From: Mustelus asterias
Taxonomy: Eukaryota
Length of the DNA: 64,000 nucleotides
Direction: 5' to 3'
Assembly: GCF_964213995.1 (NCBI RefSeq)
Contig: NW_027590154.1
Coordinates: 930,001-994,000 of the forward strand
Below the pieces are notes generated by a model that had not been told where the DNA came from, made no database searches, and worked only from the letters and a program-made list of their open reading frames with translations. The translations under genes were made by a program, and so were the position numbers. Every line of letters begins with the position of its first letter. The first letter of the stretch is position 1. This document shows, in pieces, positions 163-46,956 of the stretch.

Positions 163-666
163 ATGCAGCTCCTCAGCATACGTTGTGTGGGACGCATTCC
201 TTACAGGTAATTGCGGACCAAGCAGACTTCACCTTTTCTCTAATTTTCCACGCATATGTTAAATCAAATTTTAATCCGCAGCCCGTTTTATGTTTTTAAT
301 TCTAATATAACTTTTCAGATCAGGCTCATGGAGAGTTTGTCACTCAGCCTCTATCATCAGAGGTAAAGACAGATGGGGACGCGGTGATATTGACGTGTAA
401 CTATGAAACTACTGAAAGTGATTATGCATTGCACTGGAGCCAATAATACCCGGGTGCATAGCTCGAGTTCATGCTGTGGAGGAATACAAACAATGATGAA
501 TATAAAGCAGACTTTACTAAAAACCGTTTCTATGCCTCGCTAAAGATCACGATTAAATTCACCACTGTAACGATCTCGGGCCTGCAACTCACTGACGCTG
601 CTCTATATTATTGTGCTTTGTAAGTGTCACAATGATGAAAAGTAATCTCACCCCTGTGCAAAAGCT
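163..666 (+). pseudogene. TCR alpha/delta V pseudogene with 23-RSS
   Basis: Leader 163-206 is 44 nt, frameshifted relative to the 46-nt paralog at 17391. GT at 207, AG at 317-318. V exon reads DQAHGEFVTQP..VILTCNY..HWSQ*YPGA*LEF..LTDAALYYCAL*. RSS CACAATG(628-634)-23-GCAAAAGCT(658-666). Confidence 0.92.
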
Positions 667-2151: not shown

Positions 2152-3296
2152 CTTCATCATTATTCATTTGGATTTCAGGCCTTAATTCAGGCAATAGAAT
2201 ACAATTTAGCCACGTTTGTGAGGAAAACTTATTAAGTAACCGAAGTTACACGTAGAATCCAACAGTTAGTGGAAGAATGGATGTCAATACCGAAGGAGGT
2301 TTTGAATTATGATAAGGATGAGGGGTGATGCGGATCAATTCCCATAATGCTGCCTGATACTGCTGTTCTCCGGCTCTAGACTCCTCAGTCCGAGTGGAAA
2401 TACATGTCCCACACCAATGCACAACTGTTCGAAAGACAGAGACAGCAACCTCTCCAATAACACAGGTCAGGGAGGACAGAACAAAACGAGAACAACAAAC
2501 TGAAGTTATTGGCAGAGGAGCCAAAGAGGGATGAAGAGAGATATATATTTTAAAAATGTGTTTCTTGACGTTGACTTTCTTTTGAAATATAGTTTCCAGA
2601 TGCTTATCGCTGGGGGGATGGACAACGGATTCATTTTATTCAGCACTGTATCCCAAACCATCACTGCGACCACACCAAAAAATCAACTCAGAGGTTCAAG
2701 TTCAAAAATTGATAACATAAAATGGCATTTTTTCTGCATCACCCAGAAGAGGAAGATAGTACCCACAGGCCATACATTACACAAAAAATGAAAACAATTG
2801 CATGATGCAACAGATGAATTACGAAGAATTGTGGCCGCTTAGATCAGCGAGGACCAAATTGGTCAGTCAGTGTTGTGCATTCCCAAATGCTGATTGTCAT
2901 GTTTTGCGTGCTATTCGTTTCCTGTCATGGTGAAGTGTTTCTAGAATTGCTATCTTCTCTGTTTTATTCTGCTATCACCGCCTCACAGCACCTCTTCTCC
3001 AACTCTCGTACATAGCGAGCACACAAAACGCTATGAAAAATATTGTAGCTGAAAATATCGAGGTTCACGGTCATCCCGAAAAAGTAATATTTTGGCGAAG
3101 TCTTAGACCGATAGCTTTTTGAATTCCCTTGTTGAGTCAATGATTGAACAGGCTCATCATATCCGTCTTTCACCTTGCTTCACTACATTGCAATACATGA
3201 CAGTGTCTGCAAACTGAATCATACTGACAATTAGATTGCTGGAACCTATATTACCACCCACAGGTGCTTGAAACATTCCCCCCCCCCCAATATTTT

Positions 3297-3875
3297 CATA
3301 GAATCATAGAACCCTACAGCACAGAAAGAGGCCATTCGGCCCATCGAGTCTGCACCGACCACAATCCCACCCAGGCCCTACCCCCATATCCCTACATATT
3401 TACCCACGAATCCCTCTAACCTACGCATCTCAGGACACTAAGGGCAATTTTAGCATGGCCAATCAACCTAACCCGCACATCTTTGGAGTGTCAACCTGCA
3501 TATTGTATATGAAAATATTATAGAATCCCTCCAGTGCAGAAGGAAGCCATTCGGACAATCAAGTCTCCACCAACCTTCTGACAGAATGTCTTACACAGGC
3601 CCTCGCCCCCAAACTATCCCCGTAACCCCACACATTCAGCATGTCTAATCCATCTAACTACTCATCTTGGGACCCGAAGAGACTTTTTGTTATCATGGCC
3701 AATCCACCTGACTTGCACATCTTTGGACAGTGGGAGAAAATCGGAGCAACCGGAAGAAACCCACCCAGACACGGGAAGGATGCGCAAAATCTGCACAGAC
3801 AATCACCCAAGGCCAGACGCGAATCCAAGTCCCGGGTACTATTAAGCAGCAGGGTTAACCACTGTGGGACCATGG
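3297..3875 (-). mobile_element. Two adjacent HE1-like tRNA-derived SINE copies or fragments
   Basis: CATAGAAT-type tails at ~3297 and ~3518. The bodies match the reverse complement of the SINE at 58394-58711. Confidence 0.8.
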
Positions 3876-5331
3876 CATCCTCTGGAGATGCTCGCAAGAC
3901 ACATAAAAACAATTATTCATGTTCGCAAATATACACCACCTGCCTCTTCACGACTCTTCACATGCACGTGGCCATGAACGTTCAAGGTATTATTTGAACT
4001 TAAATTCGAATTATGCTCATTTGACATTTTAATCATTTGGGCCACACGAGGCAGTTTGGTGAAGTAACTCTGGAAATCTTTAATACTTTGTGGATACCTA
4101 TTAAATACAGGGCGGGACTTAGCTAGCGTGCTAAGGCTAGTTTGTCCTTGGGCGCAGGTTGACACTCAGTCTCTCTCTTCCCGTAACCTCAGCTTTCCTT
4201 TGGACAGCAGTCACTTGCTGCAGAAAGTGCTCAGTGAAAGTTTATGCCGATTAACTCATTCCAAGGTAGAACCCACAGGTGACCAATGAAGTTATTGCAT
4301 CACAATTAGCCTAGGTTGGCAGGGGCTAATTCTTAATTGCCCGACGGGGTGCGTTAGCAATTTGTGATTGGTCTGGGTGGGCAGTTAGCAATTGGGTTCT
4401 CGATGGTGATGGTTGTCTATTAATGCAATTTCTCATTGTGCCCTGACTGGCCCTCTAAGTATTAATTACTCGTGGAACCATCCCTCTCATGAACAGAATG
4501 TTCCCTTGCCCTTTTGTTAAGGATGCGGGAAATTTGCTGTCTTGTCGCCATGATTGATATCTTGAGCTGATCGTCTCAAAACCTCATTTAATTGATTTGC
4601 GTCAGACCCCTTTCAGCGACTCTATGTTTTGAATTTCGATGTTACTTTTCTCTATGATTTCGTGAAATAAGTTTCTTTACGTTTAAAACAAAAAATATGA
4701 AATGGTAAATTTGCTTATATCCTTAAATGCAATGAAGATATTTACAAATTACAAATATAAAATATATTGCTATTTATAGTATGTAAATGAGTGTACTTTT
4801 CATGTCTGCATTTACTAGATATAACACAGCAAGCAATATCTCATAATATTGAGTCAGGGAATGTCTCATTGATCTACAGGAAGTCATTAAAACTGGACCT
4901 TAGCAACGTGTTTTTGATCAGACAACTACTTTCCAAATGATGCTTGTGTCGCTTCAATCGGTGCTTGGTCTGAGTTCATTAAAAAATCAGAATTGCTTTG
5001 TAACATTACAAAGTTACGCAAGTTACACTAACTCTAACCAAAATACATATCAACGCTTGAAAGTGATTGGTCTGCTAAACATAGTACAGTACATTCAACT
5101 CACAGATATCAAAACTTAAAAGAATGACAGCGTTTTAAATTCTAAACTTGAAAAAAAACAAAGAGTTACATGGTGTGAAATAAAGTGACTTGCCTTAAAC
5201 ATGACGAGTTAAACTGCACTAAATCAATGCACAAAACTGAATGTTTTTTTTAAATTTTAAGGCCACCAGTTCTTTACCTTGTGTCAAGTTTGAGTGCGAA
5301 GCGACAACCAAGTCATGTGCAGTCACCTTTT

Positions 5332-7850
5332 CTATTGTTTAAAGTAACCAGTGATAATGGAGAAGGGACACAGAAGCACCTTCTTCAGCTCCCCTCGGAA
5401 TTTGGTCTGGGCCACAGAGTAGATGAAGACGTTATTGCAGGAACTGAGTAATTGAAGCATGTTGGTCGTCTCCTGAAAGATGTATTCTGGGTCATTGAAA
5501 TCTAAGCTGTTGAAGTAGCTCTCGCCTGTAATCTGCACATAGAGGAAATGTCCGAAGTAAGTCACCCACATGACGAGGAAGCTGAGGGAGATGGCAAAGA
5601 GCAGGACAATTGACTTCTTGCGGTTGGCCATCTCAGGGTCTTCCTGACTTTCGGAGCTCCGGAGCAGCCTTCGGGCTCTGCTCGCAGCTAAGATGTGTCT
5701 TACAGTCAGAGCGTTGAGCAAAAGGATGAGGATGAACGGGAGAAAAGGGGTTAAGACATGATCCAGCCAGTCAAAGGCCTGCCACGTCGGCGAGGCACTG
5801 AAGCTGGTCTTGATATCACAGAACCAGGCCACCCCATCCATGGTGAATAATGGTTGGTAGGTGAAATAGAATGGAATGTTCTTGATGCAGCTGAGGGCAC
5901 AGACTATGCCGATAACCAACAAGGCCGTTTTCTCTGTGCAGTATCTTATTTTCAGGTTCTGCCAGCAGATGGCCACATAACGATCAATGGTGAAAGCCAC
6001 TGTCAGCCAGACTGATCCATCCAGGCTGATAGAACCCAGAATCATGGTGTGCGCGCATGTTCGGTGAGTGAAAAGCACACTGTAGCCAAAGTAGATCCGT
6101 CCAATCCGGTTCAGGATGACACCAGTGATGATGACAAAGAAATCACTAACTGCTATCGCTACCAGATAGTAGGTGATGCACCGGGAGAGTCCACACCGAC
6201 CTCGGGATAAGATTATAATCGCCAAAACGTTGGCTGTGAGAGATAAGAAGAGAGAGATGTTGCTGAGCAGACGACAAGTTCGATGTGCTTACTAATGCAA
6301 TTGGTTATCAAATCCTTCCTGATCCGTCTCTTTGTTACCTCGAGACTCGGACTATTCGGAACTATTTTGTAATTTTTCAAAATTTAGCACTGGATTAAAC
6401 ATTTCCAAAACAGGAGACATTTCTATCAGTCCCAGTCCGAACTCCAATCTCTTGTCAGTGTGCCAATGCCCAGAGCTCGCTACCCAACAGGGCAGGCGAT
6501 GGCCTATTATTGTTAGAAATTCATGTAGAAATGTAACTAAAGATCTGGGGACCTGAGTTCGAATCCCCACAGGGAAGATGGTGGCATTTGAAATCAGTGT
6601 TAAAGTAATCTGGAATTAAGAATATACTTATTGCCATGAAACAATTATTGTTTGTTGGAAAAAAAATCTGGTTCACTAATGTCCTTAGGAAAGGAAATCT
6701 GCTGTCCTTATCTGGTCTGGCCTACATGTAACACCTAAGCCACAACAGCGTGTTCAGCTCTCAACTGCGTTCTGAAATGGCCTATCAAGCCACTCAGTTC
6801 ATGTGCGACTAAGGGTGGGTAATAAATGCTGACTAGCCAACGACGCCATGTCCCACGAATGAATTTTTTTAAAAACTTAAACTCGTCCAAAATACGCGCG
6901 TCAAACCTCGTATCTCTTGCAAGATGATTTTCATTGGCCTCATTTGTAAATCTCCCTTTCATTAATCTTTTGCTTTGAATATTAAATACCTCCACTCTCT
7001 CACCATCCCACCGCTACAACTATCTGAGATCACAGCATTTCTCCAATCATATATTTTGTATGTCCCCTCATATTAATCCCTCCATCGGTGATGGTTATTC
7101 CTTTCTTCAATTTTCTACATGCTATTTGGAATACGACGTTAACAATGGAGTCTGCCCGGTGGGATCTCACTGCACTGAAACCATTGCATCCTTCTAGCAA
7201 TCGCACAGTCAATTCATGTGATCACTGAATGCATCTTTTTTTTCCACAATTCATGTACTAGATGGTTGAACTGTGATAATTTATTCCCCACACTGCAATA
7301 ATATCAGTGCTCGAAAATGTAAGTTGCTACATTGCCAAAGCTCATATTCATGGTAAGATCCGTTGCTCCGAATTTTTCATAGTAACTTCGTTGCAGTGTT
7401 AATGTAGGCCTATGTGACAATAATGAATAAACTTGAACTTTAAATTTTAAATAACACTAAAACAGTAGGTTACATTTAGTAAATTAGAATAAAAGCCAAA
7501 TTTCAACAATAAAATAAATCAGTGTTCATACAAAGTCATACACTTCAGCTAGTGATTTAATAAATGGTATTTCTATGAATGTGCAGCTAAATAAATAAAA
7601 TGCTATATTGTAAGCTTCATAGTGTAAGTGCAACGAATGCACGGTAATTCATCATAAACGCGGTTGAAAGCACAGACGGTGCAGAAAATTAGAAAAAATA
7701 AGCTCGATTCTTAAAGAAGAGAAAAAAGAAATGTGTAGATTCAGAGAAAATAAATAATGTGATTTGGATTCATTACTTACCAGGGGCACCAATAACAGCG
7801 AGAATGGGATAGGAAATGGCAAAGAAGAGTCCATTCGCTGGCCCGTGCAT
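5332..7850 (-). CDS. Two-exon class A GPCR of the chondrichthyan GPR139-like family, 323 aa, intact; join(7850..7781, 6233..5332)
   Basis: Exon 1 MHGPANGLFFAISYPILAVIGAP ends at a phase-1 GTAAGT donor. A polypyrimidine-CAG acceptor at 6235-6234 opens exon 2 (ANVLAIIILSRGRCGLS..SVWLTVAFTIDRYVAIC..SSCNNVFIY). The spliced CDS is 972 nt, in frame, with 7 hydrophobic segments and a DRY motif. Confidence 0.92.
6480..6870 (+). mobile_element. tRNA-head SINE (second family) in the GPCR intron
   Basis: B-box-like GAGTTCGAATCC at ~6556 and tail ..GTCCCACGAATGAA. Related copies lie on the minus strand at ~26880-27225 and ~58970-59295. Confidence 0.7.
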
Positions 7851-9520
7851 TGTCTATCAGAAACTAACGGAATTAGCAAAGCGAAGGTCATTCGATCTGC
7901 GACACATTCAAGGTGTCTCTCACTTATTCTGACTGAACGTCTCCGGAGGGACCATTACATTGCAACATACACGTCAGTTACAGTTCACCAAACAAACAGA
8001 TGAAATCACAGTGTCATGCCTTCCATTTGTAACTTGCACAAGGGGGATGATTACATTTTATTCATGGATGAACTGATGGCTGCGAACTTGTGGTCCAGCC
8101 ACCCAGCCCCACCACAAGCCATGCCTTTCTGTCTTCCTCAGGGAGAAATGCTGGTGTTAGATATTTCCAACTCTGCCAACTTCCCAATCATTTCCTGCTT
8201 TCAGGTGTCAGGTTATGTCACGTGTGTGGTTTACTGGTAAGCATTTCAGTATTCCAGTCTTCAGTTTCATCTAAAAATGTTAACGATTTAATACTGAACT
8301 GTTTGAAAACTATTTTAGCTAACGGGGGCAGACAACTGAGCTGGAGACGATTGCATTAAAATCCTGGGCCATTTTGAAGGTTCAGAATTCTTCATTGGTA
8401 CTGCTAAACTGCAAATGCAGGAAGGACCTTAAGGTACTCCGGATCAGAATTTCTGATGCAGCAACAATTGGTATAAGATAAACAGATATATATATTTTAG
8501 GTGAAATAAAAACTGAGGCATGGCAAGCGAATATCAAACCATGCGTAGTGGCAACTGAGACGCTGGCAATTAAATGTAGAAAGATACACGCTCTGGGGTG
8601 ACAATAAAGGAAGAAACCAAATGCGACGTGCACAGCGAAAGGAGTAAAATGATATTTAGTTTCGTACAGTAGCAATTAATCGGACCTATTTTAATACAAA
8701 CTGAGATATACGTCGAATTCAGCAAGTAAGGTGTGGTCTTGTAGGCCTGACCTACTGAAACGGAGGTACGACCTAATGTTGTAAAGACTGACGAGGTCAC
8801 TATAGTTAATTCCTGGGCATGACACGGAACAGTGCAGTGAAAATAGGGACAAGGCCAACGCAATGCACAATGATATGTCGTCTCGTGCAATAATAACTGG
8901 GACGAGGCCGAGTCAATGTGATGTGAACGGAGACCTAGCTTACGTAAGAAGATGCATGATCCAGAGTAATATAAACAGCGATGAAGTCAAGTCAAAGAAT
9001 GAACGGCGACATGTTCTAGAGTAGTACTAAGTAACAACCTCTAGTGTAATTGAAACAAAGGGATAGACTGGTGCAGTGACAACGGGGAAAGTGAAAACAT
9101 AATGAAAACAGATAGAGGATCAACTTCGTTAACAGTTGTGATCGAGTTAATTGTCGTCCAGGTATAGATTGGAACTTGTGCAGTAATTTCTTGAATAGGT
9201 GACTGATGTATTAAGGCAGCATGCCATGGACGTGCATAATGATAAACAAGGTTTTCTGAAACTGAGGCAGAGCTAGTGTAATAATCACGGGACCAGAGAC
9301 GAGTAGAATAAAAAAAGTCTATAGAAACGTGGAATTAATGTGATGATGACATTAATATGATATTAGTACCAGGAGACAGGTACCAATGAAATCATGATGA
9401 AGGCTCGATCAACACTAACGGAGGCAGAGAGCTTAGTGTCATAATCAAGAAGGGGAATGCACAATAATAATCAGAGGGTTTGTGAAATGCTAACAGAGGT
9501 TCAAATTCCAAATCCAACTT

Positions 9521-9911
9521 TCAGCACCCGATTGTCCTTCTAGGAAAGGGGTGCCGATAAAGAGTTACGTTTTCTGAGAAGTGCTATGCTGAGCTGTAAA
9601 TTGTTCGGCAGGGAAACCAGTTAGTTAAAATGTGAGAGCAACAATTGTTTTTTTGCCTTGTACTGCAACAATAATCAACCTGGATTGTTGAATGTCAGGA
9701 CTCCAGCAATAGAATGAATCTATTCAAAGAAAGTGTCATTATAATGAGATTTATGCATTTGGATGGACAGAAGGACATTGCAGATATTCTGCTGTGCGGG
9801 GAGATGGATCACGACATACGGCTTGTATCTGTGAAGTGCGGTCAGGAGTTTTTCTGTGACTTACGGACGATCATGCTAGTGTACCGTACAATCAGCCAAT
9901 TTGTGTGAAGT
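9521..9911 (+). repeat. Local diverged duplication; partner at ~10909-11581 is split by a SINE
   Basis: GGGTG(T)CCGATAAAGAGTTA..CTGTAAATTGTTCGGCAGG..GACTTACGGACGATCATGCT..TGTGTGAAGT is shared with 11222-11581. 9521-9548 resembles ~10909-10937. Confidence 0.85.
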
Positions 9912-10031
9912 ATTGTGGTTACGAAGTCCCCTCTTGGTCTTTGTTGCTGTCTGCATGGCAGCCTATAATATTTAAGAGACACTTCCTACTGATTCTGTTA
10001 TTTCCTGGAGCCTCTAACCGCAGCCACAGGG

Positions 10032-10561
10032 TTTATTGATCAGAGAGTGTTGCTGGATTGGAGAATCGTAACAGACAACGAACGGTTTTTATAAGTTATA
10101 AGTTCATGGGCTTGATCTTCAAAACGAGCCCCATGTACAGAGCTCCCACAATCTTCATTGTCCTTCCTAGAGTTGGTTCATTCTCTGTCACTGCGGACAG
10201 TAACTCTGGATGTGGCAGAACTGAAAAATAATAAGTACTAAATGTAAACATTCTTTTAAATACAAAGCACAGGTTGTGCTGGTACAGGGAACATGTGTTT
10301 AAATGAGAGAGTTCACTCTGCGAGGATATTTTCAGTAGGGTGTATCATGTTGTAAATGGATCATCAGTTGCTGGATTGAGGGAAGCTGTCGGGTCGAAGG
10401 CTCCGGCATTCTGATCCGGCCGAGGTCCCGCCAACGCGTTCAGAGTGTTGGTAAACATAATCCCGGCAGAATTGAAAAAAAGCGTGAAAGAATACCTCAG
10501 ATAACAGCACATGATCCGGCCTCCCAACTCCTTACAGTTGGGGAAAGGAGGAGGACAGTTC
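10032..10561 (-). pseudogene. Possible decayed antigen-receptor C1 exon plus TM/cytoplasmic exon
   Basis: Exon-like 10561-10317 (GTVLLLSPT..GSCAVI*GILSRFF..) ends at a GTGAAC donor, followed by a 96-nt intron and a TTTTTCAG acceptor at 10222-10221. The next exon reads ..TMKIVGALYMGLVLK.., with AATAAA at 10037-10032. Similarity judged by eye only. Confidence 0.3.
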
Positions 10562-11914: not shown

Positions 11915-12353
11915 ATGGGAATCCTCCTTGTATTCGCCCTGTGTGTCTGCTTAGCCCGTGAGTACCGATCAAAATAACCAACATTGTGTGGATGGAAGCT
12001 AAAGTTCTCCAGTCCATCCCAATTATAGACACTGTCTGGGCCCCATTGTGTGGTTCGGCTCTGATGGTCCATTCAACTCTCTGTGTTTAATTTCCAGGAT
12101 CTTTCATTCAGTCAGTGATACAGAGCCCTGCTGCGGTGACCAGGAAGGAGTGTCAGTCTCTCACCATCACCTGCATTTTCCATGATATCGTTATAACTTA
12201 GGAAATGGACACTTCTTCGGACAAACTCAGACCCGGACAGGGTGGGAGCGGGTCTACAGCGGAGGGAGATTTGTAATGTCTATGAACAAAGCCGCAGAAG
12301 AGACGTTTTCACTGGAAATTCAGGATGTGAAAATTGTAGACACCGCCACCTAT
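11915..12353 (+). pseudogene. NAR-TCR-type (IgNAR-like) V pseudogene: leader plus truncated, frameshifted V exon
   Basis: TATAAA at ~11885. Leader MGILLVFALCVCLA (11915-11957) ends at GTGAGT; AG at 12096-12097. V reads SVIQSPAAVTRKECQSLTITCIF/fs/GHFFGQTQ..WERVYSGGRFVMSMNKAAEETFSLEIQDVKIVDTATY: short, CDR2-less NAR-like spacing with an extra FR1 Cys. The second Cys and the RSS are absent. Confidence 0.8.
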
Positions 12354-12370
12354 GATTGGAATGATTGATT

Positions 12371-12468
12371 GCATTTGCAAACGGTCACAAAATATGTGAC
12401 CCTGGTCTAAAACAGCTGGAAACAGGAACCACAGTAGCTGCTGTTTGTCTCAAGACTCCACAGTCCCA
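12371..12468 (+). pseudogene. Possible decayed NAR-TCR D segment
   Basis: ATATGTG(12392-12398), a ~31-nt core, then CACAGTA(12430-12436)-23-ACAGTCCCA. Both nonamers are poor matches. Confidence 0.3.
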
Positions 12469-12879
12469 GCAGGTACCCAATGGTAATCGCGAGGATGTTG
12501 CTGAATTTATACTTGAAGCACTGTGTAACTGGGATATTCACAGTGGGAGAGACCTCAGCAAATTTAAATAAAAATTAAATAACATTTCTCAGGGCCGGAT
12601 AGTGAATCATTGGGCTCATGTTAGTATCGCTGTTTTCTGGTTTAATGCCGTTTCAATCCGACCACTCATAGCGTTCTTTGTCATATATTTTTTTCGATTT
12701 ATATGAGGTGAATATTTCCTATCTGGGGTTATTCACGAAGAGCTCAGGGCATAACAAAGAACAGTTGGAACCAAAGGAGACTTCGAAACGTTTAACATTG
12801 TTTATTTATTTAAACCACCCGAGGAAATGCATCGTTCTGACTGTATGGTGGGATTTTTTTGGCAGTTTGAATTGTCGCT

Positions 12880-12958
12880 GGTTCTTGTACGGAGCGGTGT
12901 CACTATCGTACTATTATGATCCAAGATGGATCCGGGACGGAGGTGACAGTCATAGCTG
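12880..12958 (+). pseudogene. NAR-TCR-type J segment with 12-RSS (heptamer defective)
   Basis: GGTTCTTGT(12880-12888)-12-CACTATC(12901-12907). Coding TIMIQDGSGTEVTVIA, then a phase-1 GTAAGT donor at 12959. Confidence 0.82.
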
Positions 12959-14561: not shown

Positions 14562-17167
14562 ATAGAAACATAGAAACATACAAAACTACAGCACAAAACA
14601 GGCCCTTCGGCCTCACAAGTTGTGCCGAACATATCCCTACCTTTTAGGCCTACCTATAACCTTCCATCCTATTAAGTCCCATGTACTCATCCAGGAGTCT
14701 CTTAAAAGACCGTATTGAGTTTGCCTCCACCACCACTGACGGCAGCCGATTCCACTCGCCCTCTGTGTCAAAAACTTCCCCCTAACATTTCCCCTGTACC
14801 TACACCACAGCACCTTAAACCTGTGTACTCTCGTAGCTGACATTTCCACCCTGGGAAAAAGCCTCTGAGAGTCCACCTGATCTATGCCTCGCAACACCTT
14901 ATATACCTCTATTAGGTCTCCACTCATCCTAAGTCTCTCCAAGGAGAAAAGACCGAGCTCCCTCAGCATATCCTCATAAGGCATGTCACTCAATCCAGCC
15001 AACATCCTTGTAAATGGCCTCTGCACCCTTTCAATCTTTTCCACATCCTTCCTGTAATGAGGCGACCAGAACTGATCACAGTTCTCCAAGTGGGGTCTGA
15101 CGAGGGTCTGATATAGCTGCATCATTATCCCCGGACTCATAGACTCAATCGCTCGATTGATAAAGGCCAGCACACCATACGCCTTCTGAACCACCTCCTC
15201 TACCTGCGGGGCCGATTTTAGAGTCCTGTGGACCAGGACCCCAAGGTCCTTCTGATCCTCTACAGTACTAAGAGTCTTTCCCTTTATATTGTACTCCTTC
15301 ATCCCATTTGACCTGCCAAAATGATTCGAAGTCCATCTGCCACTTCTCCGCCCAGTCTTGCATCCTATCTATGTCCCTCTGTAACTTCTGACATCCCTCC
15401 AGACTATCCACAACCCCACCAACCTTCGTGTCGTCGGCAAACTTACCAACCCATCCCTCCACTTCCTCATCCAGGTCATTTATGAAAATGCCAAACAGCA
15501 AGGGTCCCAGAACAGATCCCTGCGGCACACCACTGGTGACCGACCTCCATTTAGAAAAGGACCCATCTATACACACGCTCTGCCTCCTTTGGGCAAGCCA
15601 GTTCTGGATCCACAGGGCAGCAGCCCCTTGGATCTCATGCCCTCTCACTTTTTCTAGAAGCCTTGCATGGGGGACCTTATTGAACGCCTTGCTAAAATCC
15701 ATATAAACCACATCTACCGCTTTCCCTTCGTCAATGTGTTTAGTCACATTTTCGAAGAACTCCACCTTGACAAAGCCATGCTGAGTATTCTTGAGCATAC
15801 TAAACCTCTCTAAATGCTCATAAATCCTGTCCCCCAGGATCTTCTCCATCAGCTTACCAACCACTGAGGTTAGACTCAGCGGTCGGTAATTTCCTGGGCT
15901 ATCCCTATTCCCCTTCTTGAAAATAGTAACCACATCCGCAATCCTCCAATCCTCCGGCACCTCTCCCGTCTCCATCGATGACGCAAAGATCATCACCAGA
16001 GGCTCTGTAATCTCTTCCCTCGCCTCCAACAGTAACCTGGGGTACATCCCATCGGGACCCGGTGACTTATCGATCTTGATGCCATTCAAAGATTCCAGCA
16101 CATCCTCTTTGTTAAAGTCCACATACTCAGTTTTTTCAGTCCACCGCAAGCCCGCAGTACATCCACCCAGGTCCTTCTCCTCTGTGAAAACCGAGGCAAA
16201 ATACTCATTAAGCACCTCTGCCATTTCTACTGGTTCCGTACAGACTTTCCCGCCTTCACCTTTTATAGGCCCTATTCCTTCACGTCTCTTCCTTTTATTC
16301 TTCACATATTTATAGAATGCCTTAATCCTACCTGTCTTCCACAAGGCCTTCTCGTGACCCCTTCTGGCTCTCCTAATTTCCATCTTTAGTCCCTTCCTAC
16401 AAGTCGTATACTCACCTAGATCCCTATCTTCGCCAAGCTTTCTGAACCTTTTGTACGCTTTCCTTTTCTTCTCGACTAGGTCCCGCACAGCTTTTGTGCA
16501 CCACAGTTCCTTTAAACTACCAACTCCTCTCTGTCTGCTCGGAACATTGTCCTGTAGAACCCTAGACAGACATTCCTTGAAAAACTGCCAACTCTCTTCA
16601 GTAGATTTTCCCGAGAATACCTCCTTCCAATTTACTTCTCTAATTTGCTGCCTTATGTCTTCATATTTCCCCTTACTCCACATAAACGCTTTCCTAGCTT
16701 ACCTGATCCTCTCTTTTTCCAATGCAAGCATAAAGGAGATAGAGTTATGATCGCTATGCCCAAGATGCTCTCCCACTGAGAGATCTGACACCTGTCCACG
16801 CTCCTTGGTCAGTATCAGATCAAGTACAGCCTCTCCTCTTGTAGGCTTGTCCACATGTTGTGTCAGGAAAACCCTCCTGAACACACCTAACGAACTCCTC
16901 CCCATCCAATCCCCTTACCCTCGGGATATTCCAATCTATGTTTGGGAAATTCAAGTCTCCCATCACAACAACTCTGCTATTATTGCAACTCTCCAGGATC
17001 TGTTTCCCTATCTGCTCCTCCACCTCCCTGTCACTATTGGGCGGCCTATAGAAAACTCCCAGCAAAGTGATCGACCCCTTCCCACTCCGAACTTCCACCC
17101 ACAGAGACTCTGTAGACCATCCCTCCACAGCATACACCTTCTCTGCAGCTGTGACACTATTCCTGAT
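14562..17167 (-). mobile_element. CR1 LINE ORF2 (endonuclease + RT, frameshifted), cut by the duplication junction
   Basis: ORFs 14637-15302, 15268-16683 (KFADD, GVPQGSVLGP) and 16820-17176 (YRPP, GDLN). Tail (ATAGAAAC)n. Confidence 0.93.
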
Positions 17168-17390
17168 TCCTCCCATAAGGCACTGACTGTGACCCGGCTC
17201 TGAACGTTTCCAATCATTGGCAGTCAGCCAATGGCAGCCAGCTCACCAGCCTGCCTATTCTCAATGTCACTGGGAACATCAGGAAGTGAAATGAAAACAT
17301 CCTGAGACTCACAGCAGATTACTGAGGGCGGGGTTTAGAACGGGTGTCTTCAAAATCCCCAACTCCTCTTCGACAGAGCGGACAGAGACA

Positions 17391-17852
17391 ATGCGGCTGC
17401 TCAGCATCTGGGTTGTGTGGGCAATATTTCTGACAGGTAAATGTGGACCAAACACATTTCAACTTTGTTTTTACATTTTTGAAACATGGTGTAACACAAA
17501 ATTTTCAACAGTCGCCTGTCAGATACTTTTATATTTGTTTTTCAGATCTGATTCATGGAGATTCTGTCACTCAGTCGCCGTCCTCAGATGTTAGGACAGA
17601 AGGAGAAGCGGTGACTTTAAATTGTAAATATGATACTGAAGCGAGCTACTACTATCTATACTGGTACCGGCAGCACCCAGACTCACAGCCTGAGTTTATA
17701 CTTTCGAAATACTCTCGTGGCCGTGAAGATAAAGCCGATTTTGCCAAAAGCCGTTTCTCTGTTGAGCTCCAGACGGAGAATAAATTCAGCAGTTTAACCA
17801 TCTCGGGTCTGAAGCTGGCTGACGCCGCCGTGTATTACTGCGCTTTCAGACT
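17391..17852 (+). CDS. TCR alpha/delta V segment, apparently functional; join(17391..17436, 17546..17852)
   Basis: Leader MRLLSIWVVWAIFLT with GT/AG phase-1 splice sites. V reads DSVTQSP..VTLNCKY..LYWYRQHP..LKLADAAVYYCAFRL, with the conserved Cys, Trp and Cys and no stops. Confidence 0.95.
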
Positions 17853-17891
17853 CACAGTGACAGAAAACAAGCTCAGCCCTGTACAAAAACT
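17853..17891 (+). promoter_or_regulatory. 23-spacer recombination signal sequence
   Basis: CACAGTG-23 nt-ACAAAAACT directly after the V coding end. Confidence 0.95.
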
Positions 17892-18165
17892 GCCTATCAC
17901 TACAGAATGCAGCTCCTGTCTGTTGTCGCTTGTGTAAAATCGCGGTAGATGTAGCCACAATGTACAGCGAAAGGAAACCAAGCCAACCTCGAATGAAACT
18001 GTACCCAGGAGTAACTACACAAACAAACTGCCGATTTCAACCCGACAAACAGATCAGCACAGAGTCATATTTGAAGATACCCGTTCTAATCCCCGCCTTT
18101 AATAATTTGTTCTCTACCCTCGGGGTGTTCATGCCCCACTTCCGTGTTTGACTCTGGTTCTGTGA

Positions 18166-18181
18166 GACCACTTGGTGGCGA
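18166..18181 (+). promoter_or_regulatory. Candidate CTCF site 3' of the functional V
   Basis: GACCACTTGGTGGCGA resembles the CTCF core CCACYAGRKGGCR. Confidence 0.45.
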
Positions 18182-19275
18182 TCTGGTGCTGACATGGAAA
18201 GAAAAGCGTCCGAGTCTGGCTACAGTCAGCGTCTTGATAGGGGAATGGCCGCACTTTCAGAGACTGGGGGAAGTGGAAGAGGTGGTCGGGGAATGTAATC
18301 CTGGTCTGTAGATTATCATCAGCAAATTTTGGATTGTGAGGTGCTGACAGGAACCACACCAGCCCCCAGGGAACATTCCGAAGCTCAGTGGGCACTGGGG
18401 AAAATCTACTTGGGGTTGGTTTAAAGATCACAGTCACCACTTTGCGAAATCTATTCAATGTATATAAGTTTACTCTGATTCGGCACACACTCTGTTTAAG
18501 TAAACTGTGTGAGCAGGCCGCGGCCAAGGCCTCCAGAAAACTGGGAGAGGTGACGGAGAGAGGGTTGTTCAATGCTACAGTCACGGAAAGCACATCGAAA
18601 GGAAAAAAAGTACATTGAAGTAATGAAGTAGTTTTATGAAGGTTGCTCTCAGTATAACTGTACACTGGAGTTAACTAATACAATTCCGCAAGTGTTCCTG
18701 GCGTTGTTTTTGTTTTGAGACTGCCGGTGACTCTGACCTTGGAGGCAGAGTCTTTGATTTTGTTTCGCAATGAGAGCGCTGTCTGGAACTCCAGTGTCGC
18801 ATTTTTGTCCCGAATCTGCTACTTCTCTGCTTGCTGTGTCGCACAGAAATGCGGTGTCAGAGAAAACATCTCCCGCGACATTTCAAGGGGCCATTTTGTT
18901 TCCTTTATGAAAATCAGCAGATAACTTACCTTGTACGTTTGGATACATTTTTTCAGCCCTCAGCAAAGGCAACAGTCTGGAGAACGTATCCACAAGATAG
19001 ATCCCATCAGCTCCGAACAGAGGAGTTAAATGTCAGGCTCACTTCAAACTGAGCAATTGTGTACAACCCTTTAACGTGTGTTTGATAAACCAACCTTTTT
19101 AACATGTTCAATTTGGAAGTTTCGCCGCTTTACTGTTATTGTATTTCCCCGCTCTGTTTGATATGTCACTTCACAGAGAACATCTGAGAACATCTTTCTC
19201 GTTGACCCCCATCCCACACTCAGTCTGATTAGTGACAGTGACTCAAATACTCGGAACATCTTCATCCACATTCAA

Positions 19276-20556
19276 CACTTAGAACATTACAGCGCAGTAC
19301 AGGCCCTTCGGCCCTCGATGTTGCGCTGACCAGTGAAACCAATCTAAAGCCCCTCTAATCTACACTAGTCTAATATCATCCGTACGTTTATTCAATAACC
19401 ATTTGAATGCTCTTAATGTTGACGAGTCCACGACTGCTGCAGGCAGGGCATTCCACGCCCTTAATACTCTCTGAGTAAACAACCTAACTCTCACATCAGT
19501 CCTATATCTCTCACCCCTCAATTTAAACTATGTCCCCTCGTGTTAGCCATCACCATCCGAGGAAAAAGGCTCTCACTGTCCACCCTATCTAATCCTCTGA
19601 TCATATTGCATGCCTCTATTAAGTCACCTCTAACCTTCTTCTCTCTAACGAAAACAACCTCAAGTCCCTCAGCCTTTCCTCATACGATTTTCCCACCATA
19701 CCAGGCAACATCCTGGTAAATCTCCTCTGCACCCTTTCCAACACTTCCACATCTTTCCTATAATGCGGCCACCAGAACTGTACGCAATACTTCAAGTGCG
19801 GCTGCACCAGAGTTTTGTACAGTTGCAACATGACCTCATGGTTCTGAAACTCAATCCCTCTACCAATGAAAGCTAACACACCGTATGCTTTCTTAAGAAC
19901 CCTCTCAACCTGGGTGGCAACTTTCAGGGATCTATGCACATGGACCCCAGATCCCTCTGTTCATCCACAGTACCAAGTATCTTTCCATTAGCCCAGTACT
20001 CTGTATTCCTGTTGCTCCTTCCAAAGTGAATCATTTCACACTTTTCCGCATTAAATTCCATTTGCCACCTCTCAGCCCAGCTCTGCAGCTTATCTATGTC
20101 CCTCTGTAACCAGCCACTTCCCTCCGCACTGTCTACAACTCCACCGACTTTAGTGTCATCCGCAAATTTACTAATCCATCCTTCCACGCCCTCATCCAGG
20201 TCATTAATAAAAATGACAAACAGCAGTGGCCCCAAAACAGATGCTTGCGGTGCACCACTAGTAACTGAACTCCAGGATGAATATTTCCCATCAACCACCA
20301 CCCTCTGTTTTCCTACAGCTAGCCAATTCCTGATCCAAACCACTAAATCACCCTCAATCCTGTGTGCCCGTATTTTCTGCAATAGCTTACCATGGGGAAC
20401 CTTGTCAAACGCATTGCTGAAATCCATATACACCACATCAACCGCTTTACCCTCATCCACCTCTTTGGTCACCTTCTCAAAGAACTCAATAAGGTTTGTG
20501 AGGCACGACCTACCCTTCACAAAACCGTGCTGACTATCCCTAACCAAATTATTCCT
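19276..20556 (-). mobile_element. 5'-truncated CR1 LINE (RT half, frameshifted)
   Basis: ORFs 19924-20547 (QHGFVKGRSCLTNL..KFADD) and 19619-19939. The 3' tail is at ~19276. Confidence 0.92.
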
Positions 20557-20720
20557 TGCATTTCATTGTTCAAGGCGATTTCTTTCAGATCAATTGAAGG
20601 TAAAAGTGTCTCTTAGCTCAAGTAGGATCAAGCTGGCTGTGTTTACTCATCTCGCTCTGAACAGGAGAGTGCGTCGTCAATGTCTCAGTTCTCTGCAATC
20701 CACAATTGTGTTTAAGTTAG

Positions 20721-20738
20721 TGACATCACACCAATCAG
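20721..20738 (+). promoter_or_regulatory. CRE-like motif plus CCAAT in the V promoter
   Basis: TGACATCA-CA-CCAATCAG lies ~165 bp upstream of ATG 20887. Similar motifs sit upstream of minus-strand Vs: TGACGTCA at 24557-24564 and TGATGTCA at 25660-25667. Confidence 0.5.
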
Positions 20739-20886
20739 ATCCAGCGATCTCTGCTCTTCCTCCTATAGGTTCTGTAGGATGTGACGACAGACCAGCCTCA
20801 GCAAATGCTCTCAGCTTCATCTTGTTCGATATTTTGCAGCTTTCGGAGACACAAGAAGTCCGTGGAATCCAGGAACAGCAGCAGCA

Positions 20887-21943
20887 ATGTGGCTCTCCAT
20901 TCTCGCTGTGATCTGCATGACATTCATCGTCGGTAAGAAGTTTGAAACTTGAAAAAGGAGTGAACTGGAGTGTAATTTCTGCAGAAAGAAAAACAAATAT
21001 CGGGCCTGCCATAGAGCGCACTTGCGTCTTTGATCTTGGGTTTTACTTACAGGAGTATAGTTTGGCAAAACGCACAGCAAACCAGTACCAGAAGTGGGAG
21101 ATGACATCTATCAGAAAGCAATGTAAACATTATGATTAATTTCTCTTCTGACGAGAAGACTAAAGGGCAAACTGGTTGATGTGTTTGATGTATTTGATGT
21201 ATTTGCAATGAAGAAGAGGTTCAGTGTGGTGGACGTGGAGAGGATGATTCCACTTGGGGAGGATTCCAAATCGATGCCCCATAAATCTAAGTGAATCAAA
21301 ACGATCGACTGGAAATTGCAAGGAATCTTCTTCACAGGGAGTTCTGTAGAAGGTGACGCACATTAACACAATGAGCACTTGAGGAGAGGAGTAAAGACAC
21401 AGTTGGTGTAAACTAGTCAAACCACTCAGGGGGAAAGGGACAGAGGCATTTGAGATAAGGTGGGGTGGAGGATTCTCCTGGGGATTCTGAACGTGAACGT
21501 AGATCAGTTGGAGCGAATTTGTTATCATTTAATACCTATTTTTACGTTATATCGTCTGCGAATTTTCACCCTCGGTTCAGTTGAATGTTTTTCTTTCTTT
21601 AACCATGTGTTGGAGATTCTGTTACTCAGCGGGAATCCTCACTCACACGGACAGAGGGAGAAGATGTCACTTTAAGCTGCACCTATACCGACGATGCTTA
21701 TTATTTATTCTGGTACCGTCAATACCCAGGCAGACAGCCCGAATTTGCGTTCCGGAGGCAGACGGGCGGCGGTGCTGAATTGAAGGCGGATTTCGCTCAG
21801 ACCCGCTTTTCTGATACAATCCAGAAGTCAGACAAGTTGTCCCGATTGACCATCTCGGAGCTGCTGCTGTCTGACACCGCGGTCTATTGCTGTGCACAGA
21901 GTCTCACAGTGATGAGAATGAGTGCAATCCTCGCACAAAAACT
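20887..21943 (+). pseudogene. TCR alpha/delta V segment, open V frame but canonical splice acceptor missing (probable pseudogene)
   Basis: Leader MWLSILAVICMTFIV (20887-20932) ends at GTAAG. V reads PCVGDSVTQ..LSCTY..FWYRQYPG..DTAVYCCAQS. RSS CACAGTG(21905-21911)-23-ACAAAAACT. No AG follows the pyrimidine tract at ~21600. Confidence 0.88.
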
Positions 21944-22919
21944 GTCGCAGGTTTCTGGCTCGCACCTGCTGTTTGCTGAGTGCCGTTTATAACAGCGGGT
22001 CTCACACTGACACGTAAACATATTTGGAAGCAAACACCAAAAGCAATCCACATAAACGCCATTGAAAACCGTTCACATCGAAGGCAGATTCCTTCTCGTT
22101 CTTACATTCACTGTGCGAAGGAAGAATTGACTACTCTTCATTTGGGGGTCACTGGGAACTGGGCACTAACATTGGGAAGACAAAGCAAAACATCAGTCAT
22201 TCGTGTAAACAGAAGCCCGCCAGCTGAGGCTAACCAATCGTGACTAAATACCTCTCATTTAAACTCATTTACAAACTGAGAATGATTGACATAAAAAGTA
22301 CAAAAGGATTACTTCCAGTCATGATTAGAAGCTGATAAACAACAATGAATAGAGCAAATGATTTAAAATGAAAGAGCTGGTGTGGCCTAAGCACTGGAAG
22401 AGATGGTTTGAAAACCAACCAAGCATAGAAGCTGGATTGAAAAGACCGTCAGGAACTTTGCTAAAATCTTCAGAAGTGCCTTGGGAAATCGGAACACACC
22501 AGAGAAGTCTTTATGCCCATAAAAGTAAATTGCTTTTCCTGCACTTCACTCAGCGTCATTTACCTCCTGCTACATTTACCTGTTGCTTGCACTTCCGCTA
22601 ACATCTGGAGCACAGACAAATATCTGGCACAGCAATTATGTCAAAAATCTCCAATTTGCCAATTCGTAACAATTCTCTAAACACAACTTTGCATTAATGT
22701 ATTTGTTGTAAATGGAAAAGAGGAATCCTTCACCAGTGCTGCATCCGTTACTCAACGTTTGTTAATATTTTGTATCTCTTTTAAATCAGAACAATTCGCT
22801 GATAGATTTAGAAATTCCAGTTACTCAACCCTCCACTCCCACCACCACCCATCCCCCTGGCCCATCCTCCCGCCACCCGTTCCTTTTGACCCTCTATTCC
22901 CTTTGTCACACTGCGGCAG

Positions 22920-24149
22920 TGTATCTGTTCAATGTTTCCTCTAATTTCTGTCACGGTGTTTCTCAGTCCGCAGTAATACACTGCGGTACCAGACAGCCGC
23001 AGCTCACGGATGGCAAACTTCCCTTCATTTTTTGAAGTGGTCATGGATGCAAAAAGCTGGTCTGGTCTGAAAACATCGCCATGTTTATGGATGTTGATCA
23101 AGAATGTTGGGCTTTTTCCCGGTCCTGATAATACATAAGACCATAAGACCATAAGACATAGGAGCGGAAGTAAGGCCATTCGGCCCATCGAGTCCACTCC
23201 ACCATTCAATCATGGTTGATTTCAACTCCATTTACCCGCTCTCTCCCCATAGCCCTTAATTCCTCGAGAAATCAAGAATTTATCAATTTCTGTCTTGAAG
23301 ACGCTCAACGTCTCGGCCTCCACAGCCCTCTGTGGCAATGAATTCCACAGACCTACCACTCTCTGGCTGAAGAAATTTCTCCTCATCTCTGTTCTAAAGT
23401 GACTCCCTTTTATTCTAAGGCTGTGCCCCCGCGTCCTAGTCTCCCCTGCTAATGGAAACAACTTCCCTACGTCCATCCTATCTAAGCCGTTCATTATCTT
23501 GTAAGTTTCTATCAGATCTCCCCTCAACCTCCTAAACTCCAATGAATATAATCCCACGATCCTCAGACGTTCATCGTATGTCAGGCCTACCATTCCTGGG
23601 ATCATCCGTGTGAATCTCCGCTGGACCCGCTCCAGTGCCAGTATGTCCTTCCTGAGGTGTGGGGCCCAAAATTGCTCACAGTACTCCAAATGGGGCCTAA
23701 CCAGTGCTTTATAAAGCCTCAGAAGTACATCCCTGCTTTTGTATTCCAAGCCTCTTGAGATAAATGACAACATTACATTTGCTTTCTTAATTACGGACTC
23801 AACCTGCAAGTTTACCTTTAGAGAATCCTGGACTAGGACTCCCAAGTCCCTTTGCACTTTAGCATTATGAATTTTGTCACCGTTTAGAAAATAGTCCATG
23901 CCTCTATTCTTTTTTCCAAAGTGCATGACCTCGCACTTGCCCACGTTGAAGTTCATCAGCCACTTCTTGGACCACTCTCCTAAACTGTCTAAATCTTTCT
24001 GCAGCCTCCCCACCTCCTCAATACTACCTGTACAGCTGTAAGAAATGTGAATTAGCTGTGGTCGAATAGCTGAAATCATTCATTACCGAATCTCCTTCAA
24101 ACGTTGTCATAAAACGGCTCCTGTGGGCCAGAATCTGTATCAATAATAC
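22920..24149 (-). pseudogene. TCR alpha/delta V pseudogene split by a CR1 insertion
   Basis: Acceptor at 24151-24150. The 5' half is frameshifted (..FEGDSVMNDFSYSTT..); the 3' half reads PGKSPTFLI..LRLSGTAVYYCGLR. RSS CACCGTG-23-ACAGATACA. Confidence 0.85.
23135..24019 (-). mobile_element. Young 5'-truncated CR1 inserted in a V exon
   Basis: Open ORF end in 23222-24079, tail (CATAAGAC)n, apparent 5-bp target-site duplication AATAC (23130-23134 / 24020-24024). Confidence 0.92.
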
Positions 24150-25125
24150 CTGCAATTAATTATAAATGCAGTTTTTAAAAAAATTGTCAATGTTATCAAG
24201 GTAACGGAATTGATTGCAACCAGTGAAGAAACATGATATATGGGTGATTTCCAAGTCCGTGTCACGAACAAAGTGAAAATTATTCAATTTACTTACTTGC
24301 CAGTTAAGAGCGCTGCCGCTGTGGGGATTTCTGCAAAGTAAGAGTTAATTTGCTCACAGAGCTGATGCTGGATCTGAACTCAGTGAGTTAAAGCTCAATT
24401 GCTCGAGTTGGATTCCAGAAGTTGGTGAGTAATATCCGACCTCACTCGTCATTGGTTCATTCCTGACAGAGCCACCAGGAGACCCCCAATCAGCTCACGA
24501 GTCCTCTGTCCTACATTTCATCCAATCAGCTCAGAGTGTCTTTGTTCTTTCATCCATGACGTCAAAGCGAGGCGCGTGGAACAATTTGAATCTGTTCTCA
24601 AAACAATGAACTGGGCAGAAAAGCATTAGAGAATGGGGAATAGGAGCTCTAGTCAACCATTTGTTCCTTCACCAGGGCCCGCTACCGCTGTTCAGTAAGA
24701 TCATGGCTATTTTACCTTATATCCACTTTCCTGCAACATCCCCATATTCCTTATTTACGTTAATACCCATCAATCAATCGTCACCCTTCTTGAATAAACT
24801 ACGTCTCTCTGTGAAAGAGAATAGTAAATATGGGTATTAAAAGCAGTTTTGTTTCTTTATCAGCGTTAATCTTTGCGATGGATCATTTATGGGTAACAGT
24901 TCATGTTGTTCCGATAACAGCACCAGAGTTTCCCGATTCAAGACCTGCTCGGAGACTTGGTAAACTAGTATAATGACGGATTTTACAGAGAGCGACACAA
25001 TTCCGCCCTGCAGAAATAAATCATTCCGTCAAGTTGGCCTTTTTTATTGTGTTTCTGTTAAATTAACAGTTCACAATCCAGGTCACAGATCTGATGCAGT
25101 GAGAGGAGGTGAGAGTGCGTTTGTT

Positions 25126-25601
25126 GGTTTTTGTACGGACTGACTGTGCCTCTGTAACAGTGTGAGGATCAGCGCACAGTGATACACGTCAGAGTCAGAG
25201 ACACAGACCCGGGTGATATTTAACGGAACCGTTTTCTTGTCTTGCTCCAAATCAGCAGAAAACCGGTCAAGGAATTCGGGAGACGTATCCCCCTTCCGTT
25301 TGCCGTAACTCCTCAATAAATATCTCGGAACTTTCCCAGGATACTGGATGTACCGGAAGAGAATGTTGCCTGTATATTTTGTTTCGTAGCTGCAGTTCAG
25401 TATTACCGTCTGTCCTTCCTGAACTGTTAGTTCAGGCGGCTCCTGGGAAACTGAATCTTGGCCACTGGTTCCTGTAACAACATATGGAATGTGTGAGAAA
25501 TCTGTGAGTGAATATAACCCGTGAAACACGCACTGAGGATTTGCACTCAGACTCACCGGGCAGTGAGACCATTATTATGAGTAAACACTCAGGGGACACA
25601 T
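25126..25601 (-). pseudogene. TCR alpha/delta V pseudogene (leader frameshift, conserved Trp changed to Arg)
   Basis: Leader 25601-25557 is 45 nt with an in-frame TAA. V from 25471 reads QDSVSQEP..ILNCSY..LFRYIQYPG..DSDVYHCALI. RSS CACACTG-23-ACAAAAACC. Confidence 0.9.
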
Positions 25602-26094
25602 GGTTCCTGATTGGACAGTAAACAGCGAGACTCTTTAAAATATTTCGCTGCTTCTAGTCTGATGTCACAGATCAGATCAGAGGCAGCTTCTCTTATGGGG
25701 ACACTGAAGGGCGTTTCTTAGTGCTGCGAATGGCTGGTCTCTTAGCTCTGAAGTCAGCTGAGGGAAATCACGGTTAGTTGAGGGTATAATGGCTGACGCT
25801 CTCCAATCACAATCCCTGGCTGTGCGTATGTCTTTGAAGTCTCTTTCTCTGTCTGACATTTCTTCTGAACTCAACGTCGATCGCTTTCTCCCCAATGAAG
25901 GTAGAAGGTGAAATAAATATATTAAAGTAAGTCTCGATGTGCCGAAGGACATTTTCTGCGCTCCATACCTCTTAGACTATGTGACTCAATTCACAGGGAT
26001 ATTTAGTGCATGAACGTAATCAATAGTTTTACCTTTCAAAAGTGCTGGGGATATTAAATCACCCTACTGCACACAGATTGGGGCTGTTGTTGTA

Positions 26095-26113
26095 CTGCCC
26101 ACAGGAGGGCGCT
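26095..26113 (+). promoter_or_regulatory. Candidate CTCF site
   Basis: CTGCCCACAGGAGGGCGCT; the identical 19-mer occurs inverted at 27506-27524. Confidence 0.6.
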
Positions 26114-26472
26114 TCCACTTAATTATTATTTCTACCCCTGGAAATGCGACAACTCTGAAATTAGACCACTTTTAAAATGTGTCCCCTGGTAGATTGTCAG
26201 CTGTTCCAGAAATTTTACAAGTATCGATTGATAAACTTATTCATCCAGGAGATCTGCGAGTCTGTGCGAATGGACTCGGGAAATGATTGAATTTCACCCT
26301 AGAGGAATATTATCGCTAAATATCAACTTTCCAATCGTGACAATCATTCAGTTCGGCGAAAGATAGCCCCTCAGATGGGGCTGCATTGATGCATTCATTA
26401 TCTGTCCTGTTATATGAGATTCAACTCCATTTGTTGTCCTGATCCCAAACCCTTGATGATCATTCGGCGCCC

Positions 26473-27322: not shown

Positions 27323-27505
27323 GGTTCCAGTCTGAAATCCGGAAACAGAGACAGTGGCTGTATTAGACCTGCAATTGGAATTTCGTTATCAGCTGGGGGC
27401 GGGGGGTTATGAGTCAAATGCGATTTCTTCTCCCCACCCATTTTCACGTCTTCAAACACTGTCTTTCTCGAGAAGGGGATCATGATCTCTCATAACTAAT
27501 CGGAG

Positions 27506-27524
27506 AGCGCCCTCCTGTGGGCAG
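27506..27524 (-). promoter_or_regulatory. Candidate CTCF site in the V promoter
   Basis: AGCGCCCTCCTGTGGGCAG is the reverse complement of 26095-26113 and lies ~185 bp upstream of ATG 27322. Confidence 0.6.
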
Positions 27525-33668: not shown

Positions 33669-33939
33669 ATCAGCGGCAGGTCCTGCCTGCTGCGGGGGAA
33701 GATTCAGTCGCAATGAACAGTGCCGCCGTCGGACGCTCAAACACAGCGAGTGGAAACCAGATTAACCTCGGGCCAAACTGTCACTCAACCGTGACAAGGA
33801 GCGGCTGAGAAAACAAACTCACGAACCAATGGGACAGAGACATAGCACAGAACCTTGTTTGAAATTATACCTTCTCATTCCCACTCTCAACAAACCTCGG
33901 TCTTGTGAGACCTATCAGGGGTGAATCCAAGCATCCAGA

Positions 33940-46800: not shown

Positions 46801-46956
46801 TCGAAACCAAAAGAGAAAATGCTGGAAAATCTCAGCAGGTCTGGCAGAATCTTAAGGAGAGAAAAGAGTTGAAGTTTCGAGTCCACATGATCCTTTGACA
46901 AAGATTTGTCAAAGTTCCATTGCAACCGTCAGCACCAGATTTTCCTTCTGAGAAAA

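Follow-up and report, generated by a model that had tools for sequence, protein, structure and literature searches.

The window analysed here is a 64,000-nt stretch (positions 930001-994000) of C122, an unplaced scaffold (1.13 Mb) in a shark assembly of 3.68 Gb. Its minus strand carries a G protein-coupled receptor (GPCR) gene of two exons, which together comprise 972 nt and encode 323 amino acids followed by a stop (Table 1). An earlier note on this DNA had described a complete two-exon, 323-residue GPCR, and exon ends, splice sites and the match to Pfam 7tm_1 (E = 1e-24; 87.9 bits against a curated cut-off of 30.5) are in agreement with that description. A database protein model with 96% identity to the window GPCR has the same length of 323 aa and an identical exon-1 peptide, and exon 1 and the region upstream of it are ~70% conserved in older paralogs. 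Structure prediction for exon 2 returned a seven-helix class A fold (pLDDT 76; TM-score ~0.7 to peptide receptors). In an alignment of 39 family sequences, with Ballesteros numbering counted from DRY, W6.48 and Y7.53, the D/ERY motif, W6.48, C3.25 with its ECL2 cysteine, and Y7.53 are nearly invariant. The window GPCR is an intact class A (rhodopsin-like) receptor gene. All 120 protein relatives that carried a species name, among the matches listed, came from sharks, skates or rays. Four sequencing runs cover the intron and flanks and contain no splice joint, and therefore represent DNA, not RNA.

The DRY motif is kept and NVFIY stands in place of NPxxY, both as previously claimed and both read in exon 2. 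We rejected NVFIY as a sign of unusual signaling, given that the motif reads NFFLY in GPR139 itself and NPFIY or NTCIY in other subfamilies. In the 39-sequence alignment, an acidic residue at TM3 position 3.37 (35/39 sequences) and an invariant Glu at TM7 position 7.36 may anchor a basic ligand; the Arg common at 3.36 is absent from the window GPCR.

The gene had been placed between a TCR V pseudogene and a NAR-TCR pseudocassette, and both neighbors were identified, 4.7 kb away on one side and 4.1 kb away on the other, respectively. The best PDB matches of the NAR-type V are shark VNARs, and the V is accompanied by the D and J expected of a NAR-TCR cassette, all three decayed. The supporting V-delta is absent after both NAR cassettes of the window and present in the paralogous block on C108, at 952,570. 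Within the 36-kb unit described below, 7/8 V-type segments are defective and a single one, at 17391-17891, has an undamaged leader, V exon and RSS, bearing out the picture of an intact GPCR among mostly decayed neighbors. The scaffold carries two further family members, 72% (C122:998,227; window-equivalent 68227-69123) and 58% identical (C122:840,663), the former with no V within 10 kb.

Table 1. Features of the window (window positions, unless a contig is named) and of TCR clusters elsewhere in the assembly.
Feature	Position	Strand	Remarks
TCR alpha/delta-type V pseudogene	163..666	+	two stops in V exon; leader and 23-RSS present; transcribed toward GPCR (convergent)
Homogenized tract relative to C108 and C138 paralogs	2400..10400	.	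0.3-3% divergence vs 4-12% outside; includes intron and flanks
GPCR exon 2	5332..6233	-	902 nt, AG acceptor; second half of TM1 to stop; C3.25, DRY, W6.48, NVFIY
GPCR intron	6234..7780	-	GT-AG, 1547 nt
GPCR exon 1	7781..7850	-	70 nt, ATG, GT donor; ends at phase-1 intron in TM1
NAR-type V-D-J pseudocassette (NAR-TCR type)	11915..12958	+	V, D, J, frameshifted; supporting V missing
Second unit of exact 36,019-bp tandem duplication	17166..53186	.	first unit starts 18.9 kb left of window and ends at 17167
TCR alpha/delta V, intact	17391..17891	+	leader, V exon, consensus-like 23-RSS; identical copy 36 kb left
Five defective TCR V segments	21612..33668	both	starts 21612 +, 23125 -, 25460 -, 26792 -, 33330 +
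V pseudogene, second copy	36182-36685		with the next NAR cassette copy, brackets second GPCR
Second GPCR copy	41351..43869	-	100% identical to first
NAR cassette, second copy	47934-48977		see V pseudogene, second copy
Decayed LINE (reverse-transcriptase) fragments	14600-17167, 19400-20600, 28300-31800, 59500-60100		one truncates V at 23125; another is the left arm of the tandem junction
Tandem repeat	56990-57503		units of about 66 nt
Delta-C, three copies	C71:7.12-7.14, 11.02-11.05, 12.25-12.27 Mb		
Delta-C, scaffold examples	C138:193.6-218.4 kb; C436		16 scaffolds in all
Alpha J-C clusters	C71:18.37-18.43 Mb; C546:138-240 kb		
Fused V-D-delta	C71:11,023,666-11,023,820; C436:213,426-213,770		in C436, V belongs to a NAR-TCR cassette as its supporting V

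Relation to GPR139 and selection

We next compared the family with receptors of known structure. Of all solved structures, human GPR139 scored best against a profile built from the 39 family members (E = 1e-18, compared with 2e-12 for the runner-up), making GPR139/GPR142 (PDB 7VUG, 9M42) the best solved-structure match of the family profile, by which the window GPCR can be assigned to the broad GPR139/GPR142 group. As a single sequence, it matched GPR139 with E = 1.7e-5, behind NTSR1; a fold search with its model placed GPR139 only at rank 50, and identity in the structural alignment was 21%. According to the available part of PMC7318219, GPR139 is a gene of two exons whose orthologs are 70-96% conserved (70% from human to zebrafish), and its pocket for L-Trp/L-Phe comprises E3.32, F3.33, H5.43, W6.48, R6.51 and N7.38. 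The window GPCR has G, S, an ambiguous residue, W, Y and N at these positions, with 2/6 clearly kept. The single-sequence ranking, the ~21% identity and the pocket therefore indicate a GPR139-related lineage and not a GPR139 ortholog, which we rejected. Of the earlier designation as GPR139-like, the nearest-neighbor relation of the family profile stands, whereas orthology by conservation and pocket does not.

Both receptors share two exons, a TM7 motif without Pro, W6.48 and the N271 equivalent. They differ in that the similarity is remote, that E3.32, F3.33 and R6.51 are replaced in the shark receptor, and that the shark family has a TM3-ECL2 cysteine pair, whereas the aligned GPR139 is without C3.25. 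The shark family also runs to hundreds of copies, in contrast to the well-conserved GPR139 orthologs. Distant full-length relatives of the shark genes may be candidates for the fish and coelacanth GPR210-type orphans mentioned in the accessible part of PMC6504862.

The earlier note had held that a neutral dN/dS would count against it. Compared with ten paralogs at 70-81% identity, the window GPCR gave dN/dS values of 0.14-0.21 (long-term about 0.15), and recent copies, pooled over 19 groups, a value of about 0.42. These ratios point to long-term purifying selection on the lineage, with single young copies less constrained. Among eight clade representatives, rates expressed as a share of global dS were 0.63 for five TM3 pocket sites, 0.35 for ECL1 and upper TM3, 0.37 for the C-terminus, 0.26 for ECL3 and 0.20 for ECL2; in the other helices they were 0.09-0.13. 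Such a distribution is in keeping with ligand diversification, suggesting a ligand-sensing role with a diversifying pocket.

Co-duplication with V segments

The 36,019-bp tandem duplication holds two copies of all content, with zero mismatches, 2-nt junction microhomology and no gap, and its junction sequence was found once in the assembly. With exact copies and a junction that occurs once, the duplication is either very young or an artifact, and the second GPCR copy of the window could be an assembly artifact. Blocks of 16 kb comprising V pseudogene, GPCR and NAR cassette, ~95% alike, also lie on C108 and C138 and in part on C437. The paralog on C89 (81%) shares the upstream flank up to the NAR V, and that on C444 (60%) repeats the layout (V >< GPCR ... 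NAR-V). Co-duplication with V segments, as originally proposed, was therefore seen at 100%, about 95%, 81% and 60% identity. There is no fixed V partner, because any V-type segment lies within 10 kb of only 6/10 older paralogs (4/10 are without one) and V family and orientation vary.

It is very unlikely, in our estimate, that much of this co-duplication, together with the multiplicity of delta clusters described below, amounts to assembly redundancy in the form of uncollapsed haplotypes and a false tandem copy. The perfect 36-kb copy with its single junction would fit such an origin, as would the several scaffolds that carry copies identical or near-identical to C71, a 20.4-Mb contig; however, C122 and the C108/C138 blocks differ by 4-12% in their flanks.

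Divergence between these blocks drops from 4-12% at the edges to 0.3-3% across about 8 kb centered on the GPCR, and this homogenized tract likely stems from gene conversion or ectopic exchange. Relative to the C108 copy, the window GPCR shows 6 replacement changes and 1 silent change, and it has three private amino-acid changes with no private silent change, so that this copy may be redundant and in the first stages of decay, not a maintained gene. We consider it unlikely that the gene is a recent, redundant duplicate drifting toward a pseudogene, intact through youth or a recent gene-conversion overwrite. This explanation gains from the homogenization of intron and flanks to the same extent as the exon, and from pocket residues unlike those of the family consensus, with S replacing Y at 3.33 and L replacing R at 3.36. 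On the other hand, the substitution counts are small (bootstrap interval 0.42-2.92), the same pocket changes are common to four open-frame copies, and in a related organism the stretch over the GPCR exon is 98-99% identical.

Twelve paralogs at 58-60% identity (C444, C1141, C153, C90, C160, C2969, C87, C71:16.06 Mb, C157, C122:840 kb, C110 and C166) each have, at a distance of 8-12 kb, a V from the family to which the intact V at 17391 belongs, judged by coordinates with two of the twelve inspected. This set is a second V-GPCR unit that was amplified independently.

Placement across the genome and in other sharks

We then determined where the family resides. Three query searches, each yielding the best 131-134 of about 6,000 candidates, identified at least 362 distinct loci. 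Based on matches from antigen-receptor gene searches, 111 contigs were labeled as antigen-receptor-bearing; C1, C6, C8, C13, C15, C16, C22, C24, C25, C68, C69, C185 and C373 were left unlabeled as presumed MHC, light-chain or other Ig-superfamily contigs. Antigen-receptor contigs hold 232/362 loci among the matches listed, a total biased by the choice of two of the three queries from within the complex, and 39 of the 40 loci closest to the window GPCR among the matches listed. With a query from another chromosome, the figure was 99 of the 131 best-listed loci. The enrichment at antigen-receptor loci predicted by the earlier note is thus evident in both the closest loci and the outside query, and 3/4 of the subfamilies sampled are concentrated on the antigen-receptor chromosome.

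The proposed hitch-hiking of family members with V-bearing blocks is well supported. One large subfamily grew on other chromosomes without V segments, and family expansion therefore needs no V cassettes. The 84 weaker matches of the third query are dispersed, with 5/84 on antigen-receptor contigs and 45 on other large sequences. For 11 loci on other chromosomes, no V was present within ±5 kb, a window too small to discriminate. C71 contains 78 of the at least 362 loci, spread along the whole contig. Its first 4.6 Mb contain family loci and no V matches from the V searches, and 51 family loci, among the matches listed, lie between 4.7 Mb and the J-alpha cluster.

To place the gene among other sharks, a quick tree was built from 80 selected rows, with SH-aLRT support only and long outgroup branches, of which we used a single clade. 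In this 33-row clade (SH-aLRT 97), the window GPCR is grouped with sequences of eight other shark genera. Nine relatives from Heterodontus lie on a contig apparently common to two TCR V relatives. In the white shark, the accessions of four relatives are 27-161 numbers away from that of UrIg2, which marks the antigen-receptor chromosome, and the accessions of the epaulette-shark relatives bracket that of epaulette-shark UrIg2; the whale-shark accession checked was not adjacent to whale-shark UrIg2. These indirect signs suggest that the clade apparently resides on the antigen-receptor chromosome across several shark orders and that the linkage is old.

TCR clusters, V(D)J joining and interpretation

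A TCR-delta C query recovered 19 copies, three on C71 and 16 on scaffolds, with an IgNAR C as the 20th match. The eight copies compared are all open and 88-99.97% alike, and each of the four delta clusters examined has its own J segments and TM exon. Two TCR-alpha C exons, 73% identical, each lie behind a J array; a Pfam PF09291 search did not recover TCR alpha C, and no delta-C was found in the 104 kb before J-alpha on C71. Many delta copies are considered real because of their divergence and cis position, although some are surely redundant. Against wholesale assembly redundancy, three delta clusters lie on C71 itself, and divergence reaches 12% among the eight delta-C and 27% in protein between the two alpha-C exons. 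Contigs of the related organism are also several-fold deeper on these loci (90-180 on the exon, mostly 15-25 on repeat-flank contigs), a weak hint in that depth does not give copy number. A multi-cluster organization with about 19 delta (D)-J-C and two alpha J-C clusters is likely real, and we hold this with good confidence.

In 2/4 delta clusters examined, a V coding end is fused to a D-delta remnant with extra bases, followed by the 23-RSS of the D, apparently a fixed RAG-type germline joint. The elasmobranch antigen-receptor complex (AgRC) described for four other species (Flajnik et al. 2025, PMC12227049) shows, in the part of that paper available, a similar megabase-scale intermingling of TCR alpha/delta V with NAR-TCR, IgM and IgNAR clusters, with V in both orientations. 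It differs in having TCR alpha/delta as one translocon, compared with 19 delta-C and 2 alpha-C exons here. If confirmed, many delta clusters, some with germline-joined V-D, would break the single-translocon rule for shark TCR alpha/delta and account for the ability of V segments spread across megabases to find a partner.

The positions of these clusters bear on whether V(D)J joining can reach the receptor genes. C138 carries a minus-strand V at 468,649 (468.6 kb; V exon and RSS examined) whose frame is open and whose 23-RSS is good. This V points across a 97% paralog and a second family member toward a cluster at 218-194 kb that comprises a D, seven J-like segments and a delta C. On C71, a stop-free plus-strand V at 16.48 Mb (reading frame examined) is followed by four family loci, among the matches listed, before the J-alpha and C-alpha cluster. 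Deletion of paralogs by V(D)J joining on both contigs would thus be geometrically possible. The window likewise has a V with intact RSS distal to the GPCR, at 17391 on the plus strand and in its copy 36 kb to the left. In genome-wide searches, C122, whose end lies 136 kb to the right of the window, yielded neither C nor J of the delta or alpha type, and a delta cluster at its right end was rejected, the segments there being IgM-type V-J. Distal V segments of the kind called for by the earlier note are present on C138, C71 and in the window; a J-C partner was not found on C122 in these searches. We infer that C122 belongs to the chromosome of C71.

The clone-dependent receptor dosage in T cells that had been suggested lacks support, with no D-J-C found on C122 and hundreds of paralogs, although it is possible. 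Taken together, we assign a probability of roughly two-thirds to the reading that the gene is an intact GPR139-related passenger among V segments, copied and likely homogenized with them, and deleted or inverted in some T cells probably without consequence. Under this reading, segmental duplication would copy the GPCR together with its V and NAR neighbors, gene conversion would likely homogenize the GPCR tract between blocks, and selection on the GPCR itself would keep its frame open while V neighbors decay. What drives its spread would be the tendency of the antigen-receptor complex to duplicate, and not any functional link with a V segment.

Mammalian bystanders provide a precedent for such inertness. 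Human OR10G2 and OR4E2 lie among TRAV genes, as do mouse Olfr1507-1509 in the corresponding locus (PMC4574546, available part). Like the shark genes, these olfactory receptors are class A GPCRs among alpha/delta V segments, within intervals removable by V-J joining; unlike them, they belong to an unrelated GPCR family, and it is the shark family that co-duplicates with V and NAR cassettes. The scale also differs: mammals have two or three such genes, located at the 5' edge, vs 51 loci in the C71 interval given above and 232 on antigen-receptor contigs, among the matches listed. The trypsinogen genes inside mouse Tcrb are similarly a multi-copy non-immune family between V and D-J-C, and are reported in the available part of PMC10772921 not to be expressed in T cells. 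Whereas trypsinogens have been shown to be silent there, silence of the shark genes would follow by analogy.

By contrast, the old linkage to the antigen-receptor chromosome could mean co-regulation and not inertia. The clade might have been kept in the complex for leukocyte or lymphocyte expression under locus regulation, with V(D)J joining varying the receptor sets of clones. Conserved linkage, paralogs inside potential deletion intervals on C138 and C71, a variable pocket, and fused V-D joints indicating that V segments of the field recombined to the clusters are all consistent with an immune-linked family. We nevertheless regard it as improbable, considering that known TCR-locus bystanders are silent in T cells, that the family is highly redundant, and that C122 has no delta/alpha J-C found and an IgM-type cluster at its right end. 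A more far-reaching version is a long shot: were the delta and alpha clusters spread over a chromosome-scale V field with more than 200 lymphocyte-expressed receptor genes, each V(D)J event would remove or invert a different receptor subset, leaving each T-cell clone with a somatically carved second receptor repertoire.

The results show that several subfamilies of a large GPCR family, mislabeled GPR139 and functionally unstudied, are housed mainly in the shark antigen-receptor complex. This arrangement parallels the mammalian TRA/TRD olfactory receptors with an unrelated family and at far larger scale. Existing tissue RNA-seq could be used to test where the receptors act and whether V(D)J deletion affects their expression. 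The available portions of the text and supplements of PMC12227049 contain no GPR or GPCR terms, and those of PMC10751288, PMC7677710 and PMC10620051 no GPR terms. Bamboo-shark single-cell marker tables have no GPR139 among the entries listed, which is evidence neither way. In the open-access literature covered, we found no account of this receptor family, of its linkage to TCR genes or of several delta-C genes in a shark; subscription papers (e.g. on the nurse-shark delta locus) and some supplements may bear on this.

On C71, a weak match at 987,847 was rejected as an alpha C and is an IgNAR-type C. The intervals C71:987.8-1001.3 kb and 1028-1029 kb contain IgNAR-type V and C exons beside a frameshifted family pseudogene.
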